From the NCBI RefSeq assembly GCF_030013205.1, contig NZ_CP122648.1: 64,000 bases of DNA, one strand, 5' to 3'. The stretch comes from Escherichia coli (GTDB lineage: Bacteria; Pseudomonadota; Gammaproteobacteria; Enterobacterales; Enterobacteriaceae). Positions 9,888 through 52,327 of this stretch are shown piece after piece; the first letter of the stretch is position 1, and each line of letters opens with the position of its first letter. The translations under genes and the position numbers were made by a program. The notes below the pieces were generated by a model. The model did not search any database and was not told the DNA's origin. It was given only the letters and a program-made list of their open reading frames with translations.

Positions 9888-10094
9888 ACTTTTCTCCCCC
9901 TTTTGTATCTACCCGGTGAATGGCACCGGAAAAATGAATTTGTTTATCTGATGAAAATAGTACCGCCTTTTGTGTAATTTTACTACTCATCCGACCACTT
10001 ATTTTTGCTTATTGATGGTTTATTTACATTCATACCGTAATTAAGTTACACAAAGGTTAAATTAATACTAAACATTAGTTAAATCATGGCTTTT

Positions 10095-10125
10095 GCCATT
10101 TTTATACTTTTTTTACACCCCGCCC
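10095..10125 (+). promoter_or_regulatory. kdpFABC promoter region with T-rich KdpE-binding sequence
   Basis: cattttTATACTTTTTTTACACCccgcccg about 75-100 bp upstream of kdpF; matches my recollection of the KdpE site in K-12. Approximate coordinates. Confidence 0.4.
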
Positions 10126-10199
10126 GCAGATTTTTGCGAAATCTTTGCAGCCAGAATTCTACCCTTCCGGTATCACTTTTAGGCCACTGGAGGTGCACT

Positions 10200-10289
10200 G
10201 TGAGTGCAGGCGTGATAGCCGGCGTGTTGCTGGTGTTTTTATTACTGGGTTATCTGGTTTATGCCCTGATCAATGCGGAGGCGTTCTGA
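10200..10289 (+). CDS. kdpF: KdpF, small membrane subunit of the Kdp K+-ATPase (29 aa)
   Basis: In frame within track ORF 10086..10289: (V/M)[31 protein letters not shown] start; stop overlaps the kdpA ATG. Confidence 0.75.
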
Positions 10290-11962
10290 TGGCTGCGCAA
10301 GGGTTCTTACTGATCGCCACGTTTTTACTGGTGTTAATGGTGCTGGCACGTCCTTTAGGCAGCGGGCTGGCGCGGCTGATTAATGACATACCTCTTCCCG
10401 GTACAGCGGGTGTTGAACGCGTACTCTTTCGTTTACCTGGCGTCTCTGACAGTGAGATGAACTGGAAGCAGTATCTCTGTGCCATTCTCGGCCTGAACAT
10501 GCTGGGGCTGGCGGTGCTGTTTTTTATGTTGCTCGGTCAGCACTATCTGCCGCTCAATCCACAGCAGTTGCCAGGGCTGTCATGGGATCTGGCGCTGAAT
10601 ACCGCCGTCAGCTTTGTCACTAATACCAACTGGCAATCTTACAGCGGTGAAACCACGTTGAGCTATTTCAGCCAGATGGCTGGCTTAACGGTGCAAAACT
10701 TTCTTTCTGCCGCCAGCGGGATTGCGGTGATTTTTGCCCTCATACGTGCATTTACCCGCCAGAGCATGAGCACACTCGGGAATGCCTGGGTCGATCTGCT
10801 ACGCATCACGTTATGGGTGCTAGTCCCTGTGGCGTTGTTGATCGCATTGTTTTTTATTCAACAAGGTGCGCTGCAAAACTTTCTGCCCTATCAGGCGGTG
10901 AATACCGTTGAAGGAGCGAAACAGCTGTTACCCATGGGTCCGGTGGCTTCTCAGGAAGCTATCAAGATGCTCGGCACTAACGGTGGTGGCTTCTTTAATG
11001 CCAACTCGTCGCATCCGTTTGAAAACCCAACCGCACTGACCAACTTCGTGCAGATGCTGGCGATCTTTTTGATCCCAACAGCGCTGTGCTTTGCCTTTGG
11101 TGAAGTGGCAGGCGATCGCCGCCAGGGGCGCATGTTGCTGTGGGCGATGTCAGTGATTTTTGTCATCTGCACAGGCGTGGTGATGTGGGCAGAAGTTCAG
11201 GGTAATCCTCATCTGCTGGCGCTGGGTGCGGACAGCAGCATCAATATGGAAGGTAAAGAGAGCCGTTTCGGCGTGCTGGTCAGTAGCCTGTTTGCGGTCG
11301 TGACTACGGCGGCTTCCTGTGGCGCGGTGATTGCGATGCATGATTCGTTTACCGCTCTCGGTGGCATGGTGCCGATGTGGCTGATGCAAATTGGTGAAGT
11401 GGTATTCGGCGGTGTCGGTTCTGGTCTTTACGGCATGATGCTGTTTGTCCTGCTGGCGGTGTTTATTGCCGGGCTGATGATTGGTCGTACACCGGAATAT
11501 CTGGGTAAAAAAATCGACGTACGTGAGATGAAATTGACTGCACTGGCGATTCTGGTTACTCCAACACTGGTGCTGATGGGCGCGGCGCTGGCGATGATGA
11601 CCGACGCCGGACGTAGCGCCATGCTCAACCCTGGCCCGCATGGTTTTAGCGAAGTGCTGTACGCCGTGTCATCCGCCGCTAACAACAACGGCAGCGCCTT
11701 TGCCGGATTAAGCGCCAACTCCCCGTTCTGGAACTGTTTACTGGCGTTCTGCATGTTTGTCGGTCGCTTCGGGGTGATTATCCCGGTGATGGCAATTGCC
11801 GGTTCGCTGGTGAGTAAAAAGAGCCAACCCGCCAGCTCCGGCACGCTGCCAACGCACGGCCCGCTGTTTGTTGGCCTGTTAATCGGCACCGTATTGCTGG
11901 TTGGCGCACTGACCTTTATCCCTGCCCTGGCGCTTGGTCCGGTGGCGGAATATCTCTCCTGA
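10289..11962 (+). CDS. kdpA: KdpA, K+-transporting ATPase K+-binding subunit (557 aa)
   Basis: Track ORF frame; conserved start [19 protein letters not shown]; polytopic membrane protein; operon context. Confidence 0.97.
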
Positions 11963-17291: not shown

Positions 17292-17965
17292 CAAACGTTC
17301 TGATTGTTGAAGATGAACAGGCTATTCGTCGCTTTCTGCGCACGGCGCTGGAGGGCGATGGGATGCGCGTCTTTGAGGCCGAAACGCTGCAACGCGGCTT
17401 GCTGGAAGCGGCTACCCGTAAGCCAGATTTGATTATTCTCGATCTCGGCCTGCCCGATGGTGATGGGATTGAGTTTATCCGCGACCTGCGCCAGTGGAGC
17501 GCAGTGCCGGTGATTGTGCTTTCCGCACGTAGCGAAGAGAGCGACAAAATCGCCGCGCTGGATGCCGGAGCGGATGATTATCTGAGTAAGCCGTTTGGCA
17601 TTGGCGAATTGCAGGCCCGTCTGCGCGTCGCATTACGCCGCCACTCTGCCACCACCACGCCCGATCCGCTGGTGAAATTTTCCAATGTTACCGTCGATTT
17701 AGCGGCTCGAGTGATCCATCGCGGTGAGGAAGAGGTGCATCTCACCCCGATTGAGTTCCGCCTGCTGGCGGTGTTGCTTAATAATGCGGGAAAAGTGCTC
17801 ACCCAGCGCCAGCTCCTTAACCAGGTGTGGGGGCCAAACGCGGTCGAACACAGTCATTATTTGCGTATTTATATGGGGCATCTGCGACAAAAACTGGAGC
17901 AAGATCCCGCCCGCCCCCGCCACTTCATTACTGAAACCGGTATTGGGTATCGGTTTATGCTTTAG
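17288..17965 (+). CDS. kdpE: KdpE, OmpR-family response regulator (225 aa)
   Basis: Track [20 protein letters not shown]...; 4-nt overlap with kdpD (atgtga). Confidence 0.97.
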   Translation: MTNVLIVEDEQAIRRFLRTALEGDGMRVFEAETLQRGLLEAATRKPDLIILDLGLPDGDGIEFIRDLRQWSAVPVIVLSARSEESDKIAALDAGADDYLSKPFGIGELQARLRVALRRHSATTTPDPLVKFSNVTVDLAARVIHRGEEEVHLTPIEFRLLAVLLNNAGKVLTQRQLLNQVWGPNAVEHSHYLRIYMGHLRQKLEQDPARPRHFITETGIGYRFML

Positions 17966-17974
17966 GCGGTTAAA

Positions 17975-18078
17975 TGCTGGATCCGGCATGAACGCCTTAT
18001 CCGGCCTACAAAATCTTGTAAATTCAATATATTGCACCATCCTCGCAGGCCTGATAAGCGTAGCGCATCAGGCAGTCA
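17975..18078. repeat. REP/BIME palindromic units in the kdpE-pgm intergenic region
   Basis: Two REP-like imperfect palindromes (ccggcatgaacgccttatccggcctac and gcctgataagcgtagcgcatcaggc). Confidence 0.6.
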
Positions 18079-18084
18079 TAAGTA

Positions 18085-18115
18085 AAAAAGGGCGATCTTC
18101 CGACCGCCCTTTTTC
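18085..18115. terminator. Bidirectional rho-independent terminator between convergent kdpE and pgm
   Basis: Hairpin gggcgatcttccgaccgccc flanked by A-run upstream and T-run downstream. Confidence 0.6.
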
Positions 18116-18128
18116 TTATTTAATGTGT

Positions 18129-19769
18129 TTACGCGTTTTTCAGAACTTCGCTAACAATCTCGACCGCTTCTTTCTCGATCTGCTTGCGATGCTCTTCACC
18201 GAGGAAGCTTTCGCAATAAATCTTGTACGCGTCTTCCGTGCCTGACGGACGCGCGGCGAACCAGCCGTTGTCAGTCATCACTTTCAGACCGCCGATAGAA
18301 GCACCGTTGCCAGGCGCAGCGGTCAGGCGCGCGGTGATCGGGTCACCTGCCAGGGTGCTGGCGCTCACCATTTCCGGAGACAGTTTAGACAGCGCCGCTT
18401 TTTGTGCGGAAGTCGCGGCTGCCTGCAAACGGTTGTAGCTCGGCGCACCAAAGCGTTTTGCCAGTTCGTTGTAGTGTTCCTGCGGGTTCTTACCGGTGAC
18501 CGCGGTGATTTCTGCCGCCAGCAGACACATAATGATACCGTCTTTATCGGTTGACCACGGCGTGCCGTCGAAACGCAGGAAGGAAGCCCCTGCGCTCTCT
18601 TCGCCGCCAAAGCCGAAGCTGCCGTCGAACAGACCATCAACAAACCATTTGAAACCTACCGGGACTTCTACCAGCTTACGGCCCAAGTCATTGACCACAC
18701 GGTCGATCATCGCAGATGAAACCAGCGTTTTACCGACAGCAACATCTTTGCCCCACTGCGGACGGTGCTGGAACAGGTAGTTGATCGCCACCGCCAGGTA
18801 GTGGTTCGGATTCATCAAACCTGCCGGAGTGACGATACCGTGACGGTCATAATCCGGGTCGTTAGCAAACGCCAGATCGAACTTATCACGCAGTGCCAGC
18901 AGACCCGCCATCGCACACTCGGAGGAGCAGTCCATACGGATCGCACCGTCTTTATCGAGGTGCATAAAGCGGAAGGTTTGATCGACCTGATCGTTAACGA
19001 TGGTCAGGTTGAGATTGTAATACTCGCCAATGCGCTTCCAGTATTCGATACCGGAACCACCCAGCGGATCAACGCCCAGCGTCAGGCCCGCTTTCTGAAT
19101 CGCCGCCATATCAACGATATCGGCCAGACCTTCCACAAACGGCTGCACCAGATCCTGCTCTTTCACATGACCGGATGCCATCGCTTCGTCGAGGGAGATA
19201 CGCTTCACGCCTTTCAGGCCATCAGCCATCAGTGCGTTGGCCCTGTCTTCCACCACTTTAGTGACGTTGGTATCAGCCGGGCCACCATTTGGCGGATTGT
19301 ACTTGATACCACCATCTTCCGGCGGGTTATGAGACGGTGTAATCACGATACCGTCTGCCAGCGGGCCACCTTTTTTATTGTGAACCAGGATGGCATTGGA
19401 AACGGCAGGCGTCGGGGTGAAGCCATTGTTTTCCTGCACAATGACATCAACGCCATTCGCTGCCAGCACTTCCAGTACGGAAATGAACGCAGGCTCGGAC
19501 AGGGCGTGAGTATCTTTACCCACATAGCAAGGGCCAGTGATGCCGTTTTTCGCACGTTCTTCAGCAATTGCCTGAGCGATCGCCAGAATGTGCGGCTCGT
19601 TAAAGCTGTGGCGCGCTGCACTGCCACGGTGACCGGAAGTACCGAATTTCACCGCGTGCTCCGCATTCCCTGCTTCTGGTTTCAGTACATAATATTGCGC
19701 CGTCAGTTGGGCGACGTTAATCAAATCACTCTGTTGTGCAGGTTGGCCTGCACGATTGTGGATTGCCAT
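18129..19769 (-). CDS. pgm: Phosphoglucomutase (546 aa)
   Basis: Track ORF frame trimmed to conserved start [16 protein letters not shown]; phosphohexomutase motifs ([20 protein letters not shown]). Confidence 0.96.
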
Positions 19770-19794
19770 TGCTTTGTCCTTTGTCTGCAACGTT

Positions 19795-20340
19795 TTAGAT
19801 AGTTCCGCAAACCTTCTCAATCAATTCCGCCGGGAATTGCATCGACTGCATGATGTGTTCGATCATGCTGCATTTACGGCCGGTGTTGGTATTGGTGATC
19901 ACCCAATATGGCGTGCCTGGCACATGTTTCGGCTTGGTCTGATTACCATTTTTCAGCAGCGTTTGTTCATCTGCCGCAAAGTAAACGCGTGTACGACCGT
20001 GCAACGATTCCGTTGCTTCGGCAAACGCCTGGGCGTCAAGAGAATATAGTGTAGACAACAGCAGCATAAAGCGATTGACCGCTCGCTTTTGCTCTGCGTA
20101 TTCATCCGAAAGCAGAAGTTCACGCATTGCGCGAACCTTGTCTTTAATCGTTTTGACCGGCTTCGCTTCGACGATAGCAGGTGACGCAACGCGAACCTCT
20201 TTCGTCACCGGAGCAGCAGGCTGTGATGCGGCGGAAAATTTCAACATACGCCGTAAAATGTCGGATGCGCTCTCGCCGATATGCTTAGTGTGGCTGGCAA
20301 TATAGCTGTAGAGTTCATCATCAACTTCAATCGTTTTCAT
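19795..20340 (-). CDS. seqA: SeqA, negative modulator of replication initiation (181 aa)
   Basis: Track ORF frame trimmed to [33 protein letters not shown]. Confidence 0.95.
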
Positions 20341-20524
20341 CTTAATCCAGTGCAGTGTCTTAGCTGAATACAAGTCGCCAGGAGTATATGAATAAATCCC
20401 GGCAGCGGATAGCGTCAAGCCTGGCTTGCAGAAAAACTCGGAATAAACCTTATTTGTTGCAGCCCTGTGGCACAATGGTCAACATAATACCCTAACCCGA
20501 CAACGCGAAAAAAAGAACTTTGCC

Positions 20525-21289
20525 ATGAAATTGAATATCCGCGCGCAAACTGCACAAAACCAGCACAATAATTCTCCCATCGTTCTTGTCCACGGTCTGT
20601 TTGGCAGCCTCGACAACCTTGGCGTACTGGCTCGCGATCTGGTAAACGATCACAATATCATCCAGGTTGATATGCGTAACCACGGTCTTTCACCGAGAGA
20701 TCCGGTGATGAATTACCCGGCGATGGCGCAGGATCTTGTTGATACTCTGGATGCACAGCAGATCGACAAAGCAACATTTATCGGTCACTCCATGGGCGGT
20801 AAAGCGGTAATGGCACTTACTGCACTGGCCCCCGATCGCATCGATAAATTGGTGGCGATTGACATCGCGCCGGTCGACTATCACGTACGCCGTCATGATG
20901 AGATTTTCGCGGCTATCAACGCCGTAAGTGAATCGGACGCACAAACTCGCCAGCAAGCAGCAGCAATAATGCGCCAGCATCTTAATGAAGAAGGGGTGAT
21001 TCAGTTTCTGTTGAAATCTTTTGTTGACGGTGAGTGGCGCTTTAACGTGCCGGTATTGTGGGAACAGTATCCACATATTGTGGGTTGGGAGAAAATCCCG
21101 GCATGGGATCTCCCTGCCCTGTTTATCCCAGGCGGCAACTCTCCGTATGTTAGCGAGCAGTATCGTGATGATTTACTGGCGCAATTTCCACAGGCGCGGG
21201 CACATGTGATTGCTGGCGCGGGTCACTGGGTCCATGCTGAAAAACCGGATGCGGTATTACGCGCTATCCGTCGCTATCTCAATGATTAA
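20525..21289 (+). CDS. ybfF: YbfF esterase, alpha/beta hydrolase (254 aa)
   Basis: Track ORF; GHSMGG nucleophile elbow; synteny with seqA/ybfE. Confidence 0.93.
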   Translation: MKLNIRAQTAQNQHNNSPIVLVHGLFGSLDNLGVLARDLVNDHNIIQVDMRNHGLSPRDPVMNYPAMAQDLVDTLDAQQIDKATFIGHSMGGKAVMALTALAPDRIDKLVAIDIAPVDYHVRRHDEIFAAINAVSESDAQTRQQAAAIMRQHLNEEGVIQFLLKSFVDGEWRFNVPVLWEQYPHIVGWEKIPAWDLPALFIPGGNSPYVSEQYRDDLLAQFPQARAHVIAGAGHWVHAEKPDAVLRAIRRYLND

Positions 21290-21428
21290 CGCAACTGATT
21301 AAAAACCCAGCGTCCGCGTCGCTTTCCGCGCGTGGGCGTTGGCGTGACTCATCGCGCTGATGTATTATGGCGCGCTATCCATCCGGGCAGAGGCCTGGCT
21401 GATTGTTTCCCCCGAAGTCACCAAGATC

Positions 21429-21722
21429 ATGGCCAAAGAACAAACGGACCGTACGACATTAGATCTGTTCGCGCACGAGCGTCGACCGGGACGACCGAAA
21501 ACTAATCCGCTTTCGCGCGATGAACAGCTGCGTATTAATAAACGCAACCAGCTAAAACGCGACAAAGTACGTGGCCTTAAGCGTGTCGAACTGAAGCTGA
21601 ACGCGGAAGCTGTCGAGGCACTGAACGAGCTGGCAGAATCGCGCAATATGAGCCGTAGCGAACTGATCGAAGAGATGTTAATGCAGCAACTGGCGGCGCT
21701 GCGTAGTCAGGGCATCGTTTAA
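21429..21722 (+). CDS. ybfE: YbfE, small DNA-damage-inducible protein (97 aa)
   Basis: Track ORF frame trimmed to [28 protein letters not shown]; synteny. Confidence 0.85.
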
Positions 21723-44315: not shown

Positions 44316-44711
44316 TCCCTTCTTATCGTGCCGGAATACATCCCGTATTTCGGCACGCTCACCGGATGCGGCATCAGTGCGTTATCCGGATAACAAAATC
44401 CCCCTATCCAACTTTGGCACATCTATTGCTTTGTTATACAAGGCAAAGCTTGAACCAGCATCAGTACAACCCGGTTGCACCACAGCAATCCACGGGTAGC
44501 ACCAAAAGAGTGCATTTTAAGAATTTTGCTTCGGAATGGTGCGGCGCAACTCGCAAAAACAAACAATAAAACAGCAATATCTTTACATTTAGCCAAACTA
44601 AATGTTACCTAACAGGCACAACACTGCACAATAAAGTTGCAGACGATAACAACACAAACACTCACAACGGGTATCCATGCGTTCTTAACGCAGAAGATAA
44701 AGGAGTTGGAT

Positions 44712-46530: not shown

Positions 46531-47204
46531 TGTACGAGTTTGACTGGAGTTCCATTGTCCCTTCCCTGCCATATCTGCTCGACGGGCTGGTGATCACGCT
46601 GAAAATCACCGTCACAGCAGTCGTGATTGGTATTTTGTGGGGCACCATGCTGGCGGTGATGCGCTTATCCAGCTTCGCGCCTGTTGCGTGGTTTGCCAAA
46701 GCCTACGTTAACGTGTTCCGCTCGATTCCTTTAGTTATGGTTTTGCTGTGGTTTTACCTGATTGTGCCGGGTTTTCTGCAAAACGTGCTGGGATTATCGC
46801 CAAAAAATGATATCCGTTTAATTTCGGCAATGGTGGCGTTTTCGATGTTTGAAGCGGCCTACTATTCAGAGATTATCCGTGCCGGTATTCAAAGTATTTC
46901 CCGTGGTCAGTCTAGCGCCGCGCTGGCGTTGGGGATGACTCACTGGCAGTCGATGAAACTGATTATTCTGCCGCAGGCTTTCCGCGCGATGGTGCCGCTG
47001 CTGCTCACTCAGGGCATCGTACTGTTCCAGGATACCTCACTGGTGTATGTGTTATCTCTGGCCGATTTCTTCCGTACCGCTTCAACCATTGGTGAGCGTG
47101 ATGGTACGCAGGTCGAGATGATCCTGTTTGCCGGATTTGTTTATTTCGTTATTAGCCTTAGCGCGTCGTTGTTGGTCAGCTACTTGAAAAGAAGGACAGC
47201 TTAA
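46530..47204 (+). CDS. gltK: GltK, glutamate/aspartate ABC permease (224 aa)
   Basis: Track ORF; start overlaps gltJ stop. Confidence 0.95.
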
Positions 47205-47929
47205 TGATTACCCTGAAAAATGTTTCAAAATGGTATGGTCACTTTCAGGTGCTGACCGACTGCTCAACCGAAGTGAAAAAAGGCGAAGTGGTGGTGGTTT
47301 GCGGCCCGTCTGGTTCCGGCAAATCAACGCTGATTAAAACCGTCAACGGCCTCGAACCGGTGCAGCAAGGTGAAATTACCGTCGATGGCATCGTGGTTAA
47401 CGATAAGAAAACCGATCTGGCAAAGCTGCGTTCCCGCGTCGGGATGGTGTTCCAGCATTTCGAGTTGTTCCCCCATTTGTCGATTATTGAAAACCTGACC
47501 CTGGCGCAGGTGAAAGTGCTTAAACGCGATAAAGCACCCGCTCGTGAAAAAGCATTGAAATTGCTGGAGCGCGTGGGACTTTCCGCACATGCCAATAAAT
47601 TTCCGGCGCAGCTTTCCGGCGGTCAGCAACAGCGTGTGGCGATCGCTCGCGCATTGTGTATGGATCCTATTGCCATGCTGTTCGACGAACCGACATCGGC
47701 GCTGGATCCGGAGATGATCAACGAAGTGCTGGACGTAATGGTCGAACTGGCGAACGAAGGAATGACCATGATGGTGGTGACCCACGAAATGGGCTTTGCC
47801 CGTAAAGTGGCGAATCGGGTGATCTTTATGGACGAGGGTAAAATTGTCGAAGACTCGCCGAAAGACGCTTTCTTCGATGATCCGAAATCGGACCGCGCAA
47901 AAGACTTCCTCGCGAAAATCCTGCATTAA
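47204..47929 (+). CDS. gltL: GltL, glutamate/aspartate ABC ATP-binding protein (241 aa)
   Basis: Track ORF; Walker [10 protein letters not shown], signature LSGGQQQR. Confidence 0.96.
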
Positions 47930-48046
47930 TCACTCTGGCGCGCATACCCAATTGCGCGCCATCTCACGCTTTATCGTTTCGCCCCTCGTATCTGTTACAT
48001 CCTGGCGTTACCCTTGTCGCAAAGAAGCACACAACAAGGAGCAACA

Positions 48047-48982
48047 ATGGCACTGCCAATTCTGTTAGATTGCGACCCAGGTCATGACGACGCTATCGCA
48101 ATAGTTCTCGCCCTCGCCTCACCAGAGCTTGATGTCAAAGCAATTACGTCTTCCGCCGGAAACCAGACACCAGAAAAAACCTTACGCAATGTTCTGCGTA
48201 TGCTGACCTTGCTTAATCGCACCGATATTCCGGTAGCAGGCGGCGCGGTAAAACCGTTAATGCGTGAGTTGATTATCGCGGACAATGTGCACGGCGAAAG
48301 CGGTCTCGACGGCCCGGCATTACCGGAACCGACGTTCGCACCGCAAAACTGTACGGCGGTAGAGCTGATGGCGAAAACACTACGTGAAAGTGCGGAACCT
48401 GTCACGATTGTTTCTACCGGACCGCAAACTAACGTTGCCTTGCTGCTCAATAGCCACCCGGAACTGCATAGCAAAATTGCCCGTATCGTGATTATGGGCG
48501 GTGCAATGGGGCTTGGTAACTGGACGCCTGCGGCTGAATTTAATATTTACGTTGACCCGGAAGCGGCAGAAATTGTCTTCCAGTCAGGGATCCCGGTGGT
48601 GATGGCCGGTCTGGATGTTACTCACAAAGCACAAATTCACGTTGAGGACACCGAGCGTTTCCGCGCCATTGGCAACCCTGTTTCAACCATTGTTGCCGAA
48701 CTGCTGGATTTCTTCCTCGAATATCATAAAGACGAAAAATGGGGCTTTGTCGGCGCACCGCTGCATGACCCATGCACCATCGCCTGGCTGTTAAAACCGG
48801 AGTTGTTTACCACTGTTGAGCGCTGGGTTGGCGTGGAAACACAAGGGAAATATACCCAGGGTATGACGGTTGTTGATTATTATTATCTGACCGGCAATAA
48901 ACCGAATGCTACTGTAATGGTCGATGTTGATCGTCAGGGCTTTGTTGATTTACTGGCTGATCGTCTGAAATTTTACGCTTAA
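48047..48982 (+). CDS. rihA: RihA, pyrimidine-specific ribonucleoside hydrolase (311 aa)
   Basis: Track ORF frame trimmed to [22 protein letters not shown] (nucleoside hydrolase DxDxxxDD motif). Confidence 0.95.
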
Positions 48983-49026
48983 TCACTCGCCGGATGACAT
49001 CACGCCATCCGGCACCACTCATTTCA

Positions 49027-49509
49027 TTAAGGCTCGAACGGGCGTCTCTGGAACTGGTCATGACCACATTTCGGGCATAGCGTCAGCACTTCCGGTGTAT
49101 AGATCGGGAGATGGAAGTGACATTTCTCGCAGACCAGATTTCCCAGCCCTACCACTTCTCCGCTGTGATAAACCCCGTGATGATTGAGGTCCTGGAAAAC
49201 TTCGCGCCATTCAAGCTGCGTTTTATCGGTGATGTCTGCCAGCTCCTGCCACAAGCTTTCTTTAATCACCCGCATAAAGACGCTGTCAGACTCTTCTTTC
49301 AGGCTCTCTTCATAGCTCATGGCGAACTCTTCCAGGTCACGTCTGACAGCTCGCGTCAGCTCATCGACTTCGGTTCGCGTTAACTCCCCTGTTTTTATTA
49401 CGCGCTCGCGCGCCTGTTCCACCAGTGCGTCGATATCACGTTCGCCATTGCGCAGGCGTTCGCTCAGTGACGCGACCAGTTCACGGTAATATTGAGCAAC
49501 CTTGTTCAT
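49027..49509 (-). CDS. ybeL: YbeL (DUF1451 zinc-ribbon protein, 160 aa)
   Basis: Track ORF; C-terminal CxxC...CxxC (CEKCHF...CPKCGH); convergent with rihA. Confidence 0.9.
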   Translation of the reverse strand: MNKVAQYYRELVASLSERLRNGERDIDALVEQARERVIKTGELTRTEVDELTRAVRRDLEEFAMSYEESLKEESDSVFMRVIKESLWQELADITDKTQLEWREVFQDLNHHGVYHSGEVVGLGNLVCEKCHFHLPIYTPEVLTLCPKCGHDQFQRRPFEP

Positions 49510-49744: not shown

Positions 49745-52327
49745 ATGCAAGAGCAATACCGCCCGGAAGAGATAGAATCCAAAGTACAGCTTCATTGGGA
49801 TGAGAAGCGCACATTTGAAGTAACCGAAGACGAGAGCAAAGAGAAGTATTACTGCCTGTCTATGCTTCCCTATCCTTCTGGTCGACTACACATGGGCCAC
49901 GTACGTAACTACACCATTGGTGACGTGATCGCCCGCTACCAGCGTATGCTGGGCAAAAACGTCCTGCAGCCGATCGGCTGGGACGCGTTTGGTCTGCCTG
50001 CGGAAGGCGCGGCGGTGAAAAACAACACCGCACCGGCACCGTGGACGTACGACAACATCGCGTACATGAAAAACCAGCTCAAAATGCTGGGCTTTGGTTA
50101 TGACTGGAGCCGCGAGCTGGCAACCTGTACACCGGAATACTACCGTTGGGAACAGAAATTCTTCACCGAGCTGTATAAAAAAGGCCTGGTATATAAGAAG
50201 ACTTCTGCAGTCAACTGGTGCCCGAACGACCAGACCGTACTGGCGAACGAACAAGTTATCGACGGCTGCTGCTGGCGCTGCGATACCAAAGTTGAGCGTA
50301 AAGAGATCCCGCAATGGTTTATCAAAATCACTGCTTACGCTGACGAGCTGCTCAACGATCTGGATAAACTGGATCACTGGCCAGACACCGTTAAAACAAT
50401 GCAGCGTAACTGGATCGGTCGTTCCGAAGGCGTGGAAATCACCTTCAACGTTAACGACTATGACAACACGCTGACCGTTTACACTACCCGCCCGGACACC
50501 TTTATGGGTTGTACCTACCTGGCGGTAGCGGCGGGTCATCCGCTGGCGCAGAAAGCGGCGGAAAATAATCCTGAACTGGCGGCCTTTATTGACGAATGCC
50601 GTAACACCAAAGTTGCCGAAGCTGAAATGGCAACGATGGAGAAAAAAGGCGTCGATACTGGCTTTAAAGCGGTTCACCCATTAACGGGCGAAGAAATTCC
50701 CGTTTGGGCAGCAAACTTCGTATTGATGGAGTACGGCACGGGCGCAGTTATGGCGGTTCCGGGTCACGACCAGCGCGACTACGAGTTTGCCTCTAAATAC
50801 GGCCTGAACATCAAACCGGTTATCCTGGCAGCTGACGGCTCTGAGCCAGATCTTTCTCAGCAAGCCCTGACTGAAAAAGGCGTTCTGTTCAACTCTGGCG
50901 AGTTCAACGGTCTTGACCATGAAGCGGCCTTCAACGCTATCGCCGATAAACTGACTGCGATGGGCGTTGGCGAGCGTAAAGTGAACTACCGCCTGCGCGA
51001 CTGGGGTGTTTCCCGTCAACGTTACTGGGGCGCGCCGATTCCGATGGTGACGCTGGAAGACGGTACCGTAATGCCGACCCCGGACGACCAGCTGCCGGTG
51101 ATCCTGCCGGAAGATGTGGTGATGGACGGTATTACCAGCCCGATTAAAGCAGATCCGGAGTGGGCAAAAACTACCGTTAACGGTATGCCAGCGCTGCGTG
51201 AAACCGACACTTTCGACACCTTTATGGAGTCCTCCTGGTACTATGCGCGCTACACTTGCCCGGAGTACAAAGAAGGTATGCTGGATTCCAAAGCGGCTAA
51301 CTACTGGCTGCCGGTGGATATCTACATTGGTGGTATCGAACACGCCATTATGCACCTGCTCTACTTCCGCTTCTTCCACAAACTGATGCGTGATGCAGGC
51401 ATGGTGAACTCTGACGAACCAGCGAAACAGTTACTGTGTCAGGGTATGGTGCTGGCAGATGCCTTCTACTATGTTGGCGAAAACGGCGAACGTAACTGGG
51501 TTTCCCCGGTTGATGCTATCGTTGAACGTGACGAGAAAGGCCGTATCGTGAAAGCGAAAGATGCGGCAGGCCATGAACTGGTTTATACCGGCATGAGCAA
51601 AATGTCCAAGTCGAAGAACAACGGTATCGACCCGCAGGTGATGGTTGAACGTTACGGCGCGGACACCGTTCGTCTGTTTATGATGTTTGCTTCTCCGGCT
51701 GATATGACTCTCGAATGGCAGGAATCCGGCGTGGAAGGGGCTAACCGCTTCCTGAAACGTGTCTGGAAACTGGTGTACGAGCACACAGCAAAAGGTGATG
51801 TTGCGGCACTGAACGTTGATGCACTGACTGAAGATCAGAAAGCGCTGCGTCGCGATGTGCATAAAACTATCGCTAAAGTGACCGATGATATCGGCCGTCG
51901 TCAGACCTTCAACACCGCAATTGCGGCGATTATGGAGCTGATGAACAAACTGGCGAAAGCACCGACCGATGGCGAGCAGGATCGCGCTCTGATGCAGGAA
52001 GCGCTGCTGGCCGTTGTCCGTATGCTTAACCCGTTCACCCCGCACATCTGCTTCACGCTGTGGCAGGAACTGAAAGGCGAAGGCGATATCGACAACGCAC
52101 CGTGGCCGGTTGCTGACGAAAAAGCGATGGTGGAAGACTCCACGCTGGTCGTGGTGCAGGTTAACGGTAAAGTCCGTGCAAAAATCACCGTTCCGGTGGA
52201 CGCAACGGAAGAACAGGTTCGCGAACGTGCTGGCCAGGAACATCTGGTAGCAAAATATCTTGATGGCGTTACCGTGCGTAAAGTGATTTACGTACCAGGT
52301 AAACTCCTCAATCTGGTCGTTGGCTAA
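49745..52327 (+). CDS. leuS: Leucyl-tRNA synthetase (860 aa)
   Basis: Track ORF frame trimmed to [25 protein letters not shown] and KMSKS motifs. Confidence 0.97.

Follow-up and report, generated by a model that had tools for sequence, protein, structure and literature searches.

In Escherichia coli K-12, a cluster of seven genes separates rihA from ybeL; in the genome analyzed here, these two genes are neighbors. Does this adjacency reflect a cluster that was lost, a cluster that was never acquired, or a cluster that has moved elsewhere? We address this question in a stretch of 64,000 nucleotides of E. coli DNA (the window), which we compare with reference strains, with complete E. coli genomes, and with relatives across the Enterobacteriaceae. 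We describe the junction itself, the distribution of its alternative states, the age of the gene cluster, the origin of the empty site, and the functions that the strain would lack.

The rihA–ybeL junction and its spacer

The window belongs to E. coli sensu stricto and is about equidistant from K-12, CFT073, and IAI39, with 97.4-98.3% identity over shared regions. The left synteny anchor of the junction is gltL (47204..47929, + strand), the last gene of gltIJKL, whose product is 100% identical to K-12 GltL at the amino acid level (tblastn). It is followed by rihA (48047..48982, + strand), which encodes a pyrimidine-specific ribonucleoside hydrolase of 311 aa and ends in a TAA at 48980..48982; the protein matches NCBIfam NF007761 with 643 bits (cutoff 433) and shares 99.7% amino acid identity with K-12 RihA. 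The mechanical open reading frame begins upstream, at a TTG at 48014; since the NF007761 match extends from residue 12 of this frame onward, the true start is the ATG at 48047. On the other side lies ybeL (49027..49509, − strand), which encodes a DUF1451 zinc-ribbon protein of 160 aa (NCBIfam NF008261, 300 bits, cutoff 183; 100% amino acid identity to K-12 YbeL) and ends in a stop codon at 49027..49029, TTA as read on the + strand. The right synteny anchor is leuS (49745..52327, + strand), divergent from ybeL (TIGR00396, 1318 bits; 99.7% amino acid identity to K-12 LeuS). The outer neighbors, gltL on the left and leuS on the right, are arranged as in K-12. In the sequence and its list of open reading frames, convergent rihA (+) and ybeL (−) are separated by 44 bp (48983..49026). 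A finished genome, that of CFSAN018748 (NZ_CP028192.1; swine, Denmark), is 100% identical to the window over a 1.2-kb junction query, and its RefSeq annotation gives the same layout: gltL, rihA, a 44-bp gap, ybeL, and leuS. The initial annotation had placed the end of rihA at 48982 and the start of ybeL at 49027, in convergent orientation with a 44-bp gap; these positions are exact by sequence, open reading frames, NCBIfam models, and RefSeq annotation.

The K-12 order is gltL, rihA, hscC, djlC, ybeU, ybeT, djlB, ybeR, ybeQ, ybeL, leuS. All seven genes that the initial annotation had listed between rihA and ybeL, and their order, agree with the K-12 annotation. Measured from stop codon to stop codon, rihA and ybeL lie 7,976 bp apart in K-12 vs 44 bp in the window, and alignment to K-12 bears out the claim that the hscC/djlB/djlC segment is absent from the junction. 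The K-12 segment is an island of ~8 kb in which hscC is accompanied by djlC-ybeU and djlB-ybeR, a pair of paralogous J-protein/DUF1266 modules, and by two Sel1-repeat genes (ybeT and ybeQ); Pfam recognizes HSP70 in HscC, DUF1266 in YbeU and YbeR, and Sel1 repeats in YbeT and YbeQ. Its GC content is 46.9%, vs 52-52.6% in the flanks. Homology between the two alleles stops right after the rihA stop codon and restarts at the ybeL stop codon. Across the whole 64-kb window, tblastn (E<=1e-3) with the seven island proteins as queries detects no homologue.

The place of the hscC..ybeQ island is occupied by the 44-bp spacer, TCACTCGCCGGATGACATCACGCCATCCGGCACCACTCATTTCA. When the ends of the island in K-12, TUM2830, the cryptic clades, and Salmonella are compared with the spacer, nothing similar is found, and the spacer contains no island remnant. 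Within it, positions 48989..49013 form a palindromic hairpin, GCCGGATG-ACATCACGC-CATCCGGC, that folds with -14.8 kcal/mol on the + strand (rihA-sense RNA; z -3.3) and -22.6 kcal/mol on the − strand (ybeL-sense RNA; z -3.7), with z-scores computed against dinucleotide-preserving shuffles. The exact hairpin sequence is unique within the window, even at up to 3 mismatches, and the octamers of its arms occur 3 times each in 64 kb. A reading of the spacer as an intrinsic (Rho-independent) bidirectional terminator was rejected: a stem-loop is present, a T-run is found on neither strand, and a terminator scan returned 0 sites. Likewise, the spacer and the ybeL-leuS region have no Rfam match at E<=1.

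The spacer hairpin is best described as a short REP-like palindrome. It resembles REP/BIME elements in its GCCGGATG...CATCCGGC arms, its imperfect palindrome, its stable fold, and its site between convergent 3′ ends; it differs in being only 25 nt long, near-symmetric, and devoid of the usual internal consensus. The orthologous spacers of Citrobacter and S. arizonae contain bona fide REP or BIME sequences, and the Citrobacter copies have a 'CCTAC' tail, which the window hairpin lacks. A full REP/BIME unit is a matter of ~35 nt, a conserved internal sequence and tail, and dispersed copies; the window hairpin is not such a unit. From its position, the rihA and ybeL transcripts would converge on one shared hairpin, which, if it behaves like REP elements, could possibly act as a 3′-end stabilizer or as a weak bidirectional transcription barrier for the two convergent mRNAs.

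Distribution of the island and the empty site

Of 5,426 complete E. coli genomes sampled, 5,424 carry the flanks. The contiguous, empty rihA-ybeL junction is present in 964 of these (17.8%, about one in six), and island DNA of any extent in 4,449 genomes (82% of complete E. coli); 3,663 genomes retain at least 80% of the K-12 island. The sum of empty junctions and genomes with any island DNA, 5,413, is smaller than the 5,424 genomes with flanks, and this fits a mutual exclusion of the empty junction and the island across genomes. By the same population counts, the island is probably absent from the rest of the source genome as well; nothing suggests otherwise.

Between the full and empty states lie eroded ones. 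A short form, typified by TUM2830, is found in 565 genomes and other partial forms in about 220. The TUM2830 form results from one fixed 2.8-kb internal deletion, through which ybeR is lost entirely, along with most of djlB and the 5′ portion of ybeQ; a query that spans this deletion (contig L086, from TUM2830, 7135..7600) is 100% identical among the copies listed, and the flanks are CFT073-like. One of the other partial forms is that of NCTC10537 (contig L087, 4314..7609), in which the island is a hybrid of the djlC-ybeU and djlB-ybeR paralogous modules; this hybrid arose by recombination between the two modules, and in addition its djlC is frameshifted and its ybeQ is interrupted by a stop codon.

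Among reference strains, CFT073 (NC_004431.1, 715491..715536) and IAI39 (NC_011750.1, 653563..653608) are empty, with a 44-bp gap. They have in common with the window the order gltL, rihA, ybeL, leuS and the equal length of the gap, and their flanking genes differ from those of the window at about 1-3% of nucleotides. The full island is carried by K-12, 55989, O157:H7, and 042. We take the phylogroups of these strains to be B2 for CFT073, F for IAI39, A for K-12, B1 for 55989, E for O157:H7, and D for 042. The empty junction is an ordinary presence/absence polymorphism of the accessory genome, already visible when K-12 is compared with CFT073 or IAI39, and it is not specific to the window. In the literature on hscC, djlC, or ybeQ polymorphism, on hscC and phylogroup, and on DUF1266, we found functional reviews and incidental mentions, and no explicit description of this polymorphism.

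A second variable slot lies nearby, in the lnt-gltI intergenic region (window 44316..44711; compare L001 8083..9063, L083 20260..22137, and L092 from 18800 onward). It holds IS5 in K-12 and a 1.9-kb gene for a rhomboid-family serine protease in CFT073 and 042; the window and IAI39 have neither. This slot is probably what the initial annotation counted as its first accessory-region difference.

The flanks of the junction have a history of their own. CFT073, which is empty, and TUM2830, which carries the short island, are nearly the same in gltL, rihA, and leuS: they differ at 1 nt over the 600 bp to the left of the junction; to its right, 4 differences fall within the first 100 bp, with next to none beyond. 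The last 250 bp of rihA in the window show 1 difference to 042 vs 7-8 to K-12, CFT073, and IAI39; among five references, the junction-proximal flanks of the window are closest to those of 042, which bears the island. These comparisons show that homologous recombination has reshuffled the flanks up to the heterology boundary and that the island state is uncoupled from the local flank haplotype. Such a pattern is expected if recombination tracts end at this boundary. Given this uncoupling, local flank similarity can neither date nor polarize the event that separated the two states.

Outside these strains, adjacency is the rule. A YbeL-based scan of contigs, with one genome per species, yielded 80 loci; these include four Escherichia species representatives, and they exclude E. 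albertii and E. fergusonii, the outgroups that would polarize the event, as well as E. coli sensu stricto, E. marmotae, S. bongori, and S. enterica subsp. enterica. Across the 80 YbeL loci, the family norm is that ybeL adjoins rihA, or gltL where rihA is missing. We find this adjacency in Citrobacter (>10 species), S. enterica subsp. arizonae, Kluyvera, Enterobacter, Pseudocitrobacter, Kosakonia, Lelliottia, Trabulsiella, and others, and the short spacers of other genera often contain one REP or a two-REP BIME. In still other lineages, the same interval is filled with unrelated genes: two Citrobacter genomes (L014 10481..17355 and L018 10481..19052) have chaperone-usher fimbrial operons there; Leclercia and Klebsiella oxytoca (L048 10481..14429 and L069 10481..14650) and, judged by size, K. 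grimontii have TPS/ShlB two-partner secretion genes; and Enterobacter quasihormaechei (L032 5719..7573) has an Hcp gene. Since the cargo at this one site is unrelated from lineage to lineage, the ybeL-rihA/gltL interval is a recurrent cross-genus insertion hotspot.

The HscC genes also occur away from this interval. A contig from Logan SRR26188678 (L090, 1574..6124) holds a four-gene cassette with an HscC 87% identical to that of K-12, a DjlB/C-like J-protein, a DUF1266 protein, and a 184-aa Sel1 protein, flanked by an Asp/Glu racemase gene on one side and RibD_C/AlaE genes on the other. This cassette suggests that the HscC module can relocate as a unit. A much broader scenario can be sketched, to which we assign a low probability: REP/BIME hairpins would partake in cassette exchange at the ybeL/rihA hotspot; the HscC module (Hsp70, tail-anchored J-protein, DUF1266, and Sel1-repeat protein) would be a mobile, H-NS-silenced unit with an undiscovered role, for instance in envelope stress or inter-genomic conflict; and the polymorphism in Escherichia and Salmonella would be under selection and non-neutral.

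Age of the island and origin of the empty allele

Comparison with related lineages shows that the HscC island is older than E. coli. Three cryptic lineages, Escherichia sp. E1V33, E. whittamii, and Escherichia sp. MOD1-EC7003 (L003, L004, and L006), carry it at the same site and in the same order. At third codon positions, their divergence from K-12 amounts to 9-34% in island genes (hscC 17-22%, djlC 24%, ybeU 16-18%, ybeQ 14-34%) and to 10-26% in four flank genes (rihA 19-21%, ybeL 19-26%, and leuS 10-13% among them). The cluster is also found in S. enterica subsp. enterica, between rihA and ybeL and in the same orientation, with an HscC of 83% amino acid identity; it is without ybeT and has an extra 412-aa open reading frame, with no Pfam match, between rihA and hscC. 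Between S. enterica and K-12, the fraction of amino acid-conserved codons that differ is 0.51-0.60 in island genes and 0.39-0.53 in lnt, gltJKL, rihA, and ybeL. The divergence of the Salmonella island lies at or above that of its flanks; the genera have thus not exchanged it recently. In S. enterica subsp. arizonae (L022), the rihA-ybeL site is empty and holds a BIME; with the island in subsp. enterica and an empty site in subsp. arizonae, the same presence/absence polymorphism exists within Salmonella. The low GC content and H-NS silencing fit an old, horizontally acquired, H-NS-silenced cluster. Overall, the HscC island is very old and mostly vertically inherited; it is not a recent mobile element.

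Several features of the island region in these relatives are recorded here in their own right. In S. enterica subsp. enterica, the differences map to 8687..9925 of L088/L089 (the side of the extra open reading frame) and to 17741..21680, a Salmonella-specific block beyond ybeL with a sigma-54 activator, a KdgT-type transporter, and an altronate-dehydratase-like gene; E. coli has leuS directly at this place. Just upstream of hscC lies an inverted repeat (AAGATCACCAC...GGTGGT; AAGATCACCACGC...GGTGGTCTT; L001 13595..13635 and L088 9926..9965) that is kept in E. coli, the cryptic clades, and Salmonella within intergenic sequence that has otherwise diverged; its possible roles are those of a regulatory operator or of a rihA-side terminator of the island. 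In Escherichia sp. MOD1-EC7003, ybeL and ybeQ are set apart by an additional 2.5 kb (L006 10481..12996) that codes for a J-domain protein in two pieces (93 aa with the DnaJ domain, then 326 aa, ~29% identical to DjlC) and for a secreted-looking protein of 321 aa; the segment looks like a third, decayed J-protein module of the island.

How, then, did the window come by its empty site? We consider it highly probable (roughly 0.88) that the empty site of the window is an already existing allele common to many genomes, rather than a fresh deletion in this strain or the unmodified counterpart of a K-12-specific insertion. The spacer recurs in unrelated lineages: that of the window is identical in IAI39 and 1 nt off in CFT073. 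A 39-bp form, shorter by a 5-bp deletion and altered at 2-3 positions, with one of the substitutions extending the hairpin stem, is present in E. coli C10 (river water, Panama), a strain with ordinary E. coli flanks, and in L005 (SCPM-O-B-8794, labeled E. coli by NCBI), which shares only 93.9% identity with the window over 19 kb, a cryptic-clade level of divergence. Because the spacer is missing from island-bearing alleles, independent deletions could not recreate it; this shows a single origin of the empty allele, which later split into the 44-bp and 39-bp haplotypes. In L005, ybeL (10001..10483) is 15-17 nt from E. coli ybeL, vs 34-45 nt in other cryptic clades, and its rihA and leuS are 5-7% from those of E. 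coli; these values suggest an old introgression of ybeL and perhaps of the empty spacer too.

Three competing explanations were weighed. The recent loss of a K-12-like island between rihA and ybeL, confined to this strain or clone, could appeal to the internal deletions of the TUM2830 and NCTC10537 types and to the resemblance of the window's junction-proximal flanks to those of island-bearing 042. Yet a deletion cannot yield a 44-bp sequence that is absent from island alleles and equal to that of IAI39, 1 nt from that of CFT073; furthermore, the junction is common to 964 genomes, and the known true deletions leave gene remnants, whereas the window junction has none. We regard such a loss as extremely unlikely. 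A recent gain of the island in the K-12/phylogroup A lineage, which would make the window the unmodified E. coli state, is very unlikely given the distribution of the island: its DNA is present in 82% of complete E. coli, across what we take to be phylogroups A, B1, D, and E and in a clone with B2-like flanks; three cryptic Escherichia lineages carry it with flank-like divergence; and S. enterica has it in the same place, diverged as much as the core or more. The points in favor of a recent gain are a GC content of 46.9% against flanks of 52-52.6%, H-NS silencing in 042, ybeL-rihA adjacency as the norm in other genera, and an hscC/J-protein/DUF1266/Sel1 cassette in another genomic context (L090). 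A weaker form of this explanation, in which a never-inserted ancestral arrangement was kept as a polymorphism, has roughly even odds. Finally, nothing speaks for an island that was relocated within the genome or missed through assembly collapse, and the chance of either is close to nil: the 64-kb window holds no island homologue, a finished genome with the same junction matches it at 100%, 964 independent complete assemblies show this junction, and the counts of empty and island-bearing genomes (964 + 4,449 = 5,413, less than 5,424) give no sign of overlap.

For the widely shared empty-site allele, the next question is that of the founding event. We propose that the E. coli empty allele would trace to one ancient event and would have reached the window lineage by descent or by allelic replacement via the conserved flanks. 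As to the nature of this event, loss of the island and import or retention of the un-inserted Enterobacteriaceae arrangement are about equally likely. Loss is favored by an island that predates the species and by the partial erosion observed in extant genomes. Retention or re-import is favored by the lack of any remnant, by boundaries that fall exactly at both stop codons, and, as a weak point, by a REP-hairpin spacer as in other genera. Each origin has something to account for: a deletion must explain the source of a 44-bp sequence without counterpart in island-bearing alleles, and retention must explain a polymorphism that has outlasted the species.

The hairpin itself does not polarize the event. 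REP-likeness was discarded as proof of orthology with the empty sites of Citrobacter and S. arizonae, as such hairpins are generic at convergent gene ends; and the island has a REP-like hairpin of its own between hscC and djlC, with a BIME in E. whittamii. Because REP hairpins are generic and the island carries one too, the resemblance is unusable for polarization. A derivation of the spacer from the internal hscC-djlC hairpin via two deletions was likewise rejected: the two resemble each other in their REP arms only, with unrelated sequence on either side.

Functional consequences and comparison with known systems

What would the absence of the cluster mean for the cell? HscC is a specialized Hsp70 whose ATPase is stimulated only by DjlC (PMC8215388); the HscC system was described by Kluck et al. 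2002, as summarized in PMC8215388. Deletion of hscC, or of djlB and djlC together, increases sensitivity to Cd2+, and an effect on UV resistance has been reported too (PMC8215388). In exponentially growing K-12, HscC, DjlB, and DjlC are under the proteomic detection limit (PMC8215388). In an hns mutant of 042, ybeR is de-repressed 308-fold at 25 °C (PMC7582179); the ybeR gene of 042 is EC042_RS03510, identified by position. A role of the island as a known phage-defense system was also considered and rejected: against PADLOC-DB 2.0.0, the seven K-12 island proteins have no significant match, and the weak matches, to Sel1/TPR-type PtuA, have E 1e-4 to 5e-3.

Going by K-12 and 042, the window strain would lack an HscC/DjlB/DjlC Hsp70 system that appears dispensable, barely expressed, and H-NS-silenced. 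Given the low expression, the deletion phenotypes, and the lack of a defense match, the consequences of cluster absence are expected to be modest, in agreement with the frequent erosion of the island. The window strain may resemble a K-12 hscC deletion mutant, with a modest increase in its sensitivity to Cd2+ and UV. The locus opens no new mechanistic question. Its value is of another kind: with three easily scored states (full island, the short form of 565 genomes, and empty), it is usable as a lineage marker, and it provides an example of an old accessory island and an empty site that co-exist for longer than the species, with flank recombination that halts at the heterology boundary.

Two further known systems invite comparison. 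One is the K-12 HscC cluster, which occupies exactly the same chromosomal slot as the window spacer, bounded by the stop codons of rihA and ybeL. The cluster and the spacer are alternative alleles, with seven genes in 7,976 bp on one side and none in 44 bp on the other, and they have no spacer sequence in common.

The other comparison is with integration hotspots. Touchon and colleagues are said to have described, in 2009, chromosomal integration hotspots of E. coli, regions of genomic plasticity between conserved core genes. The rihA-ybeL interval is alike in that a single core-gene interval holds alternative content: the HscC island, fimbriae, two-partner secretion genes, Hcp, or nothing. 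The K-12 island was rejected as a classical integrative element, as none of its seven genes is a mobility gene and no direct repeats mark its boundaries; the only sign in the K-12 segment for this class is its GC content of 46.9% vs about 52%. The likeness to an integration hotspot is one of position and alternative content; the difference is that the HscC island has no integrase, tRNA gene, or flanking direct repeat.
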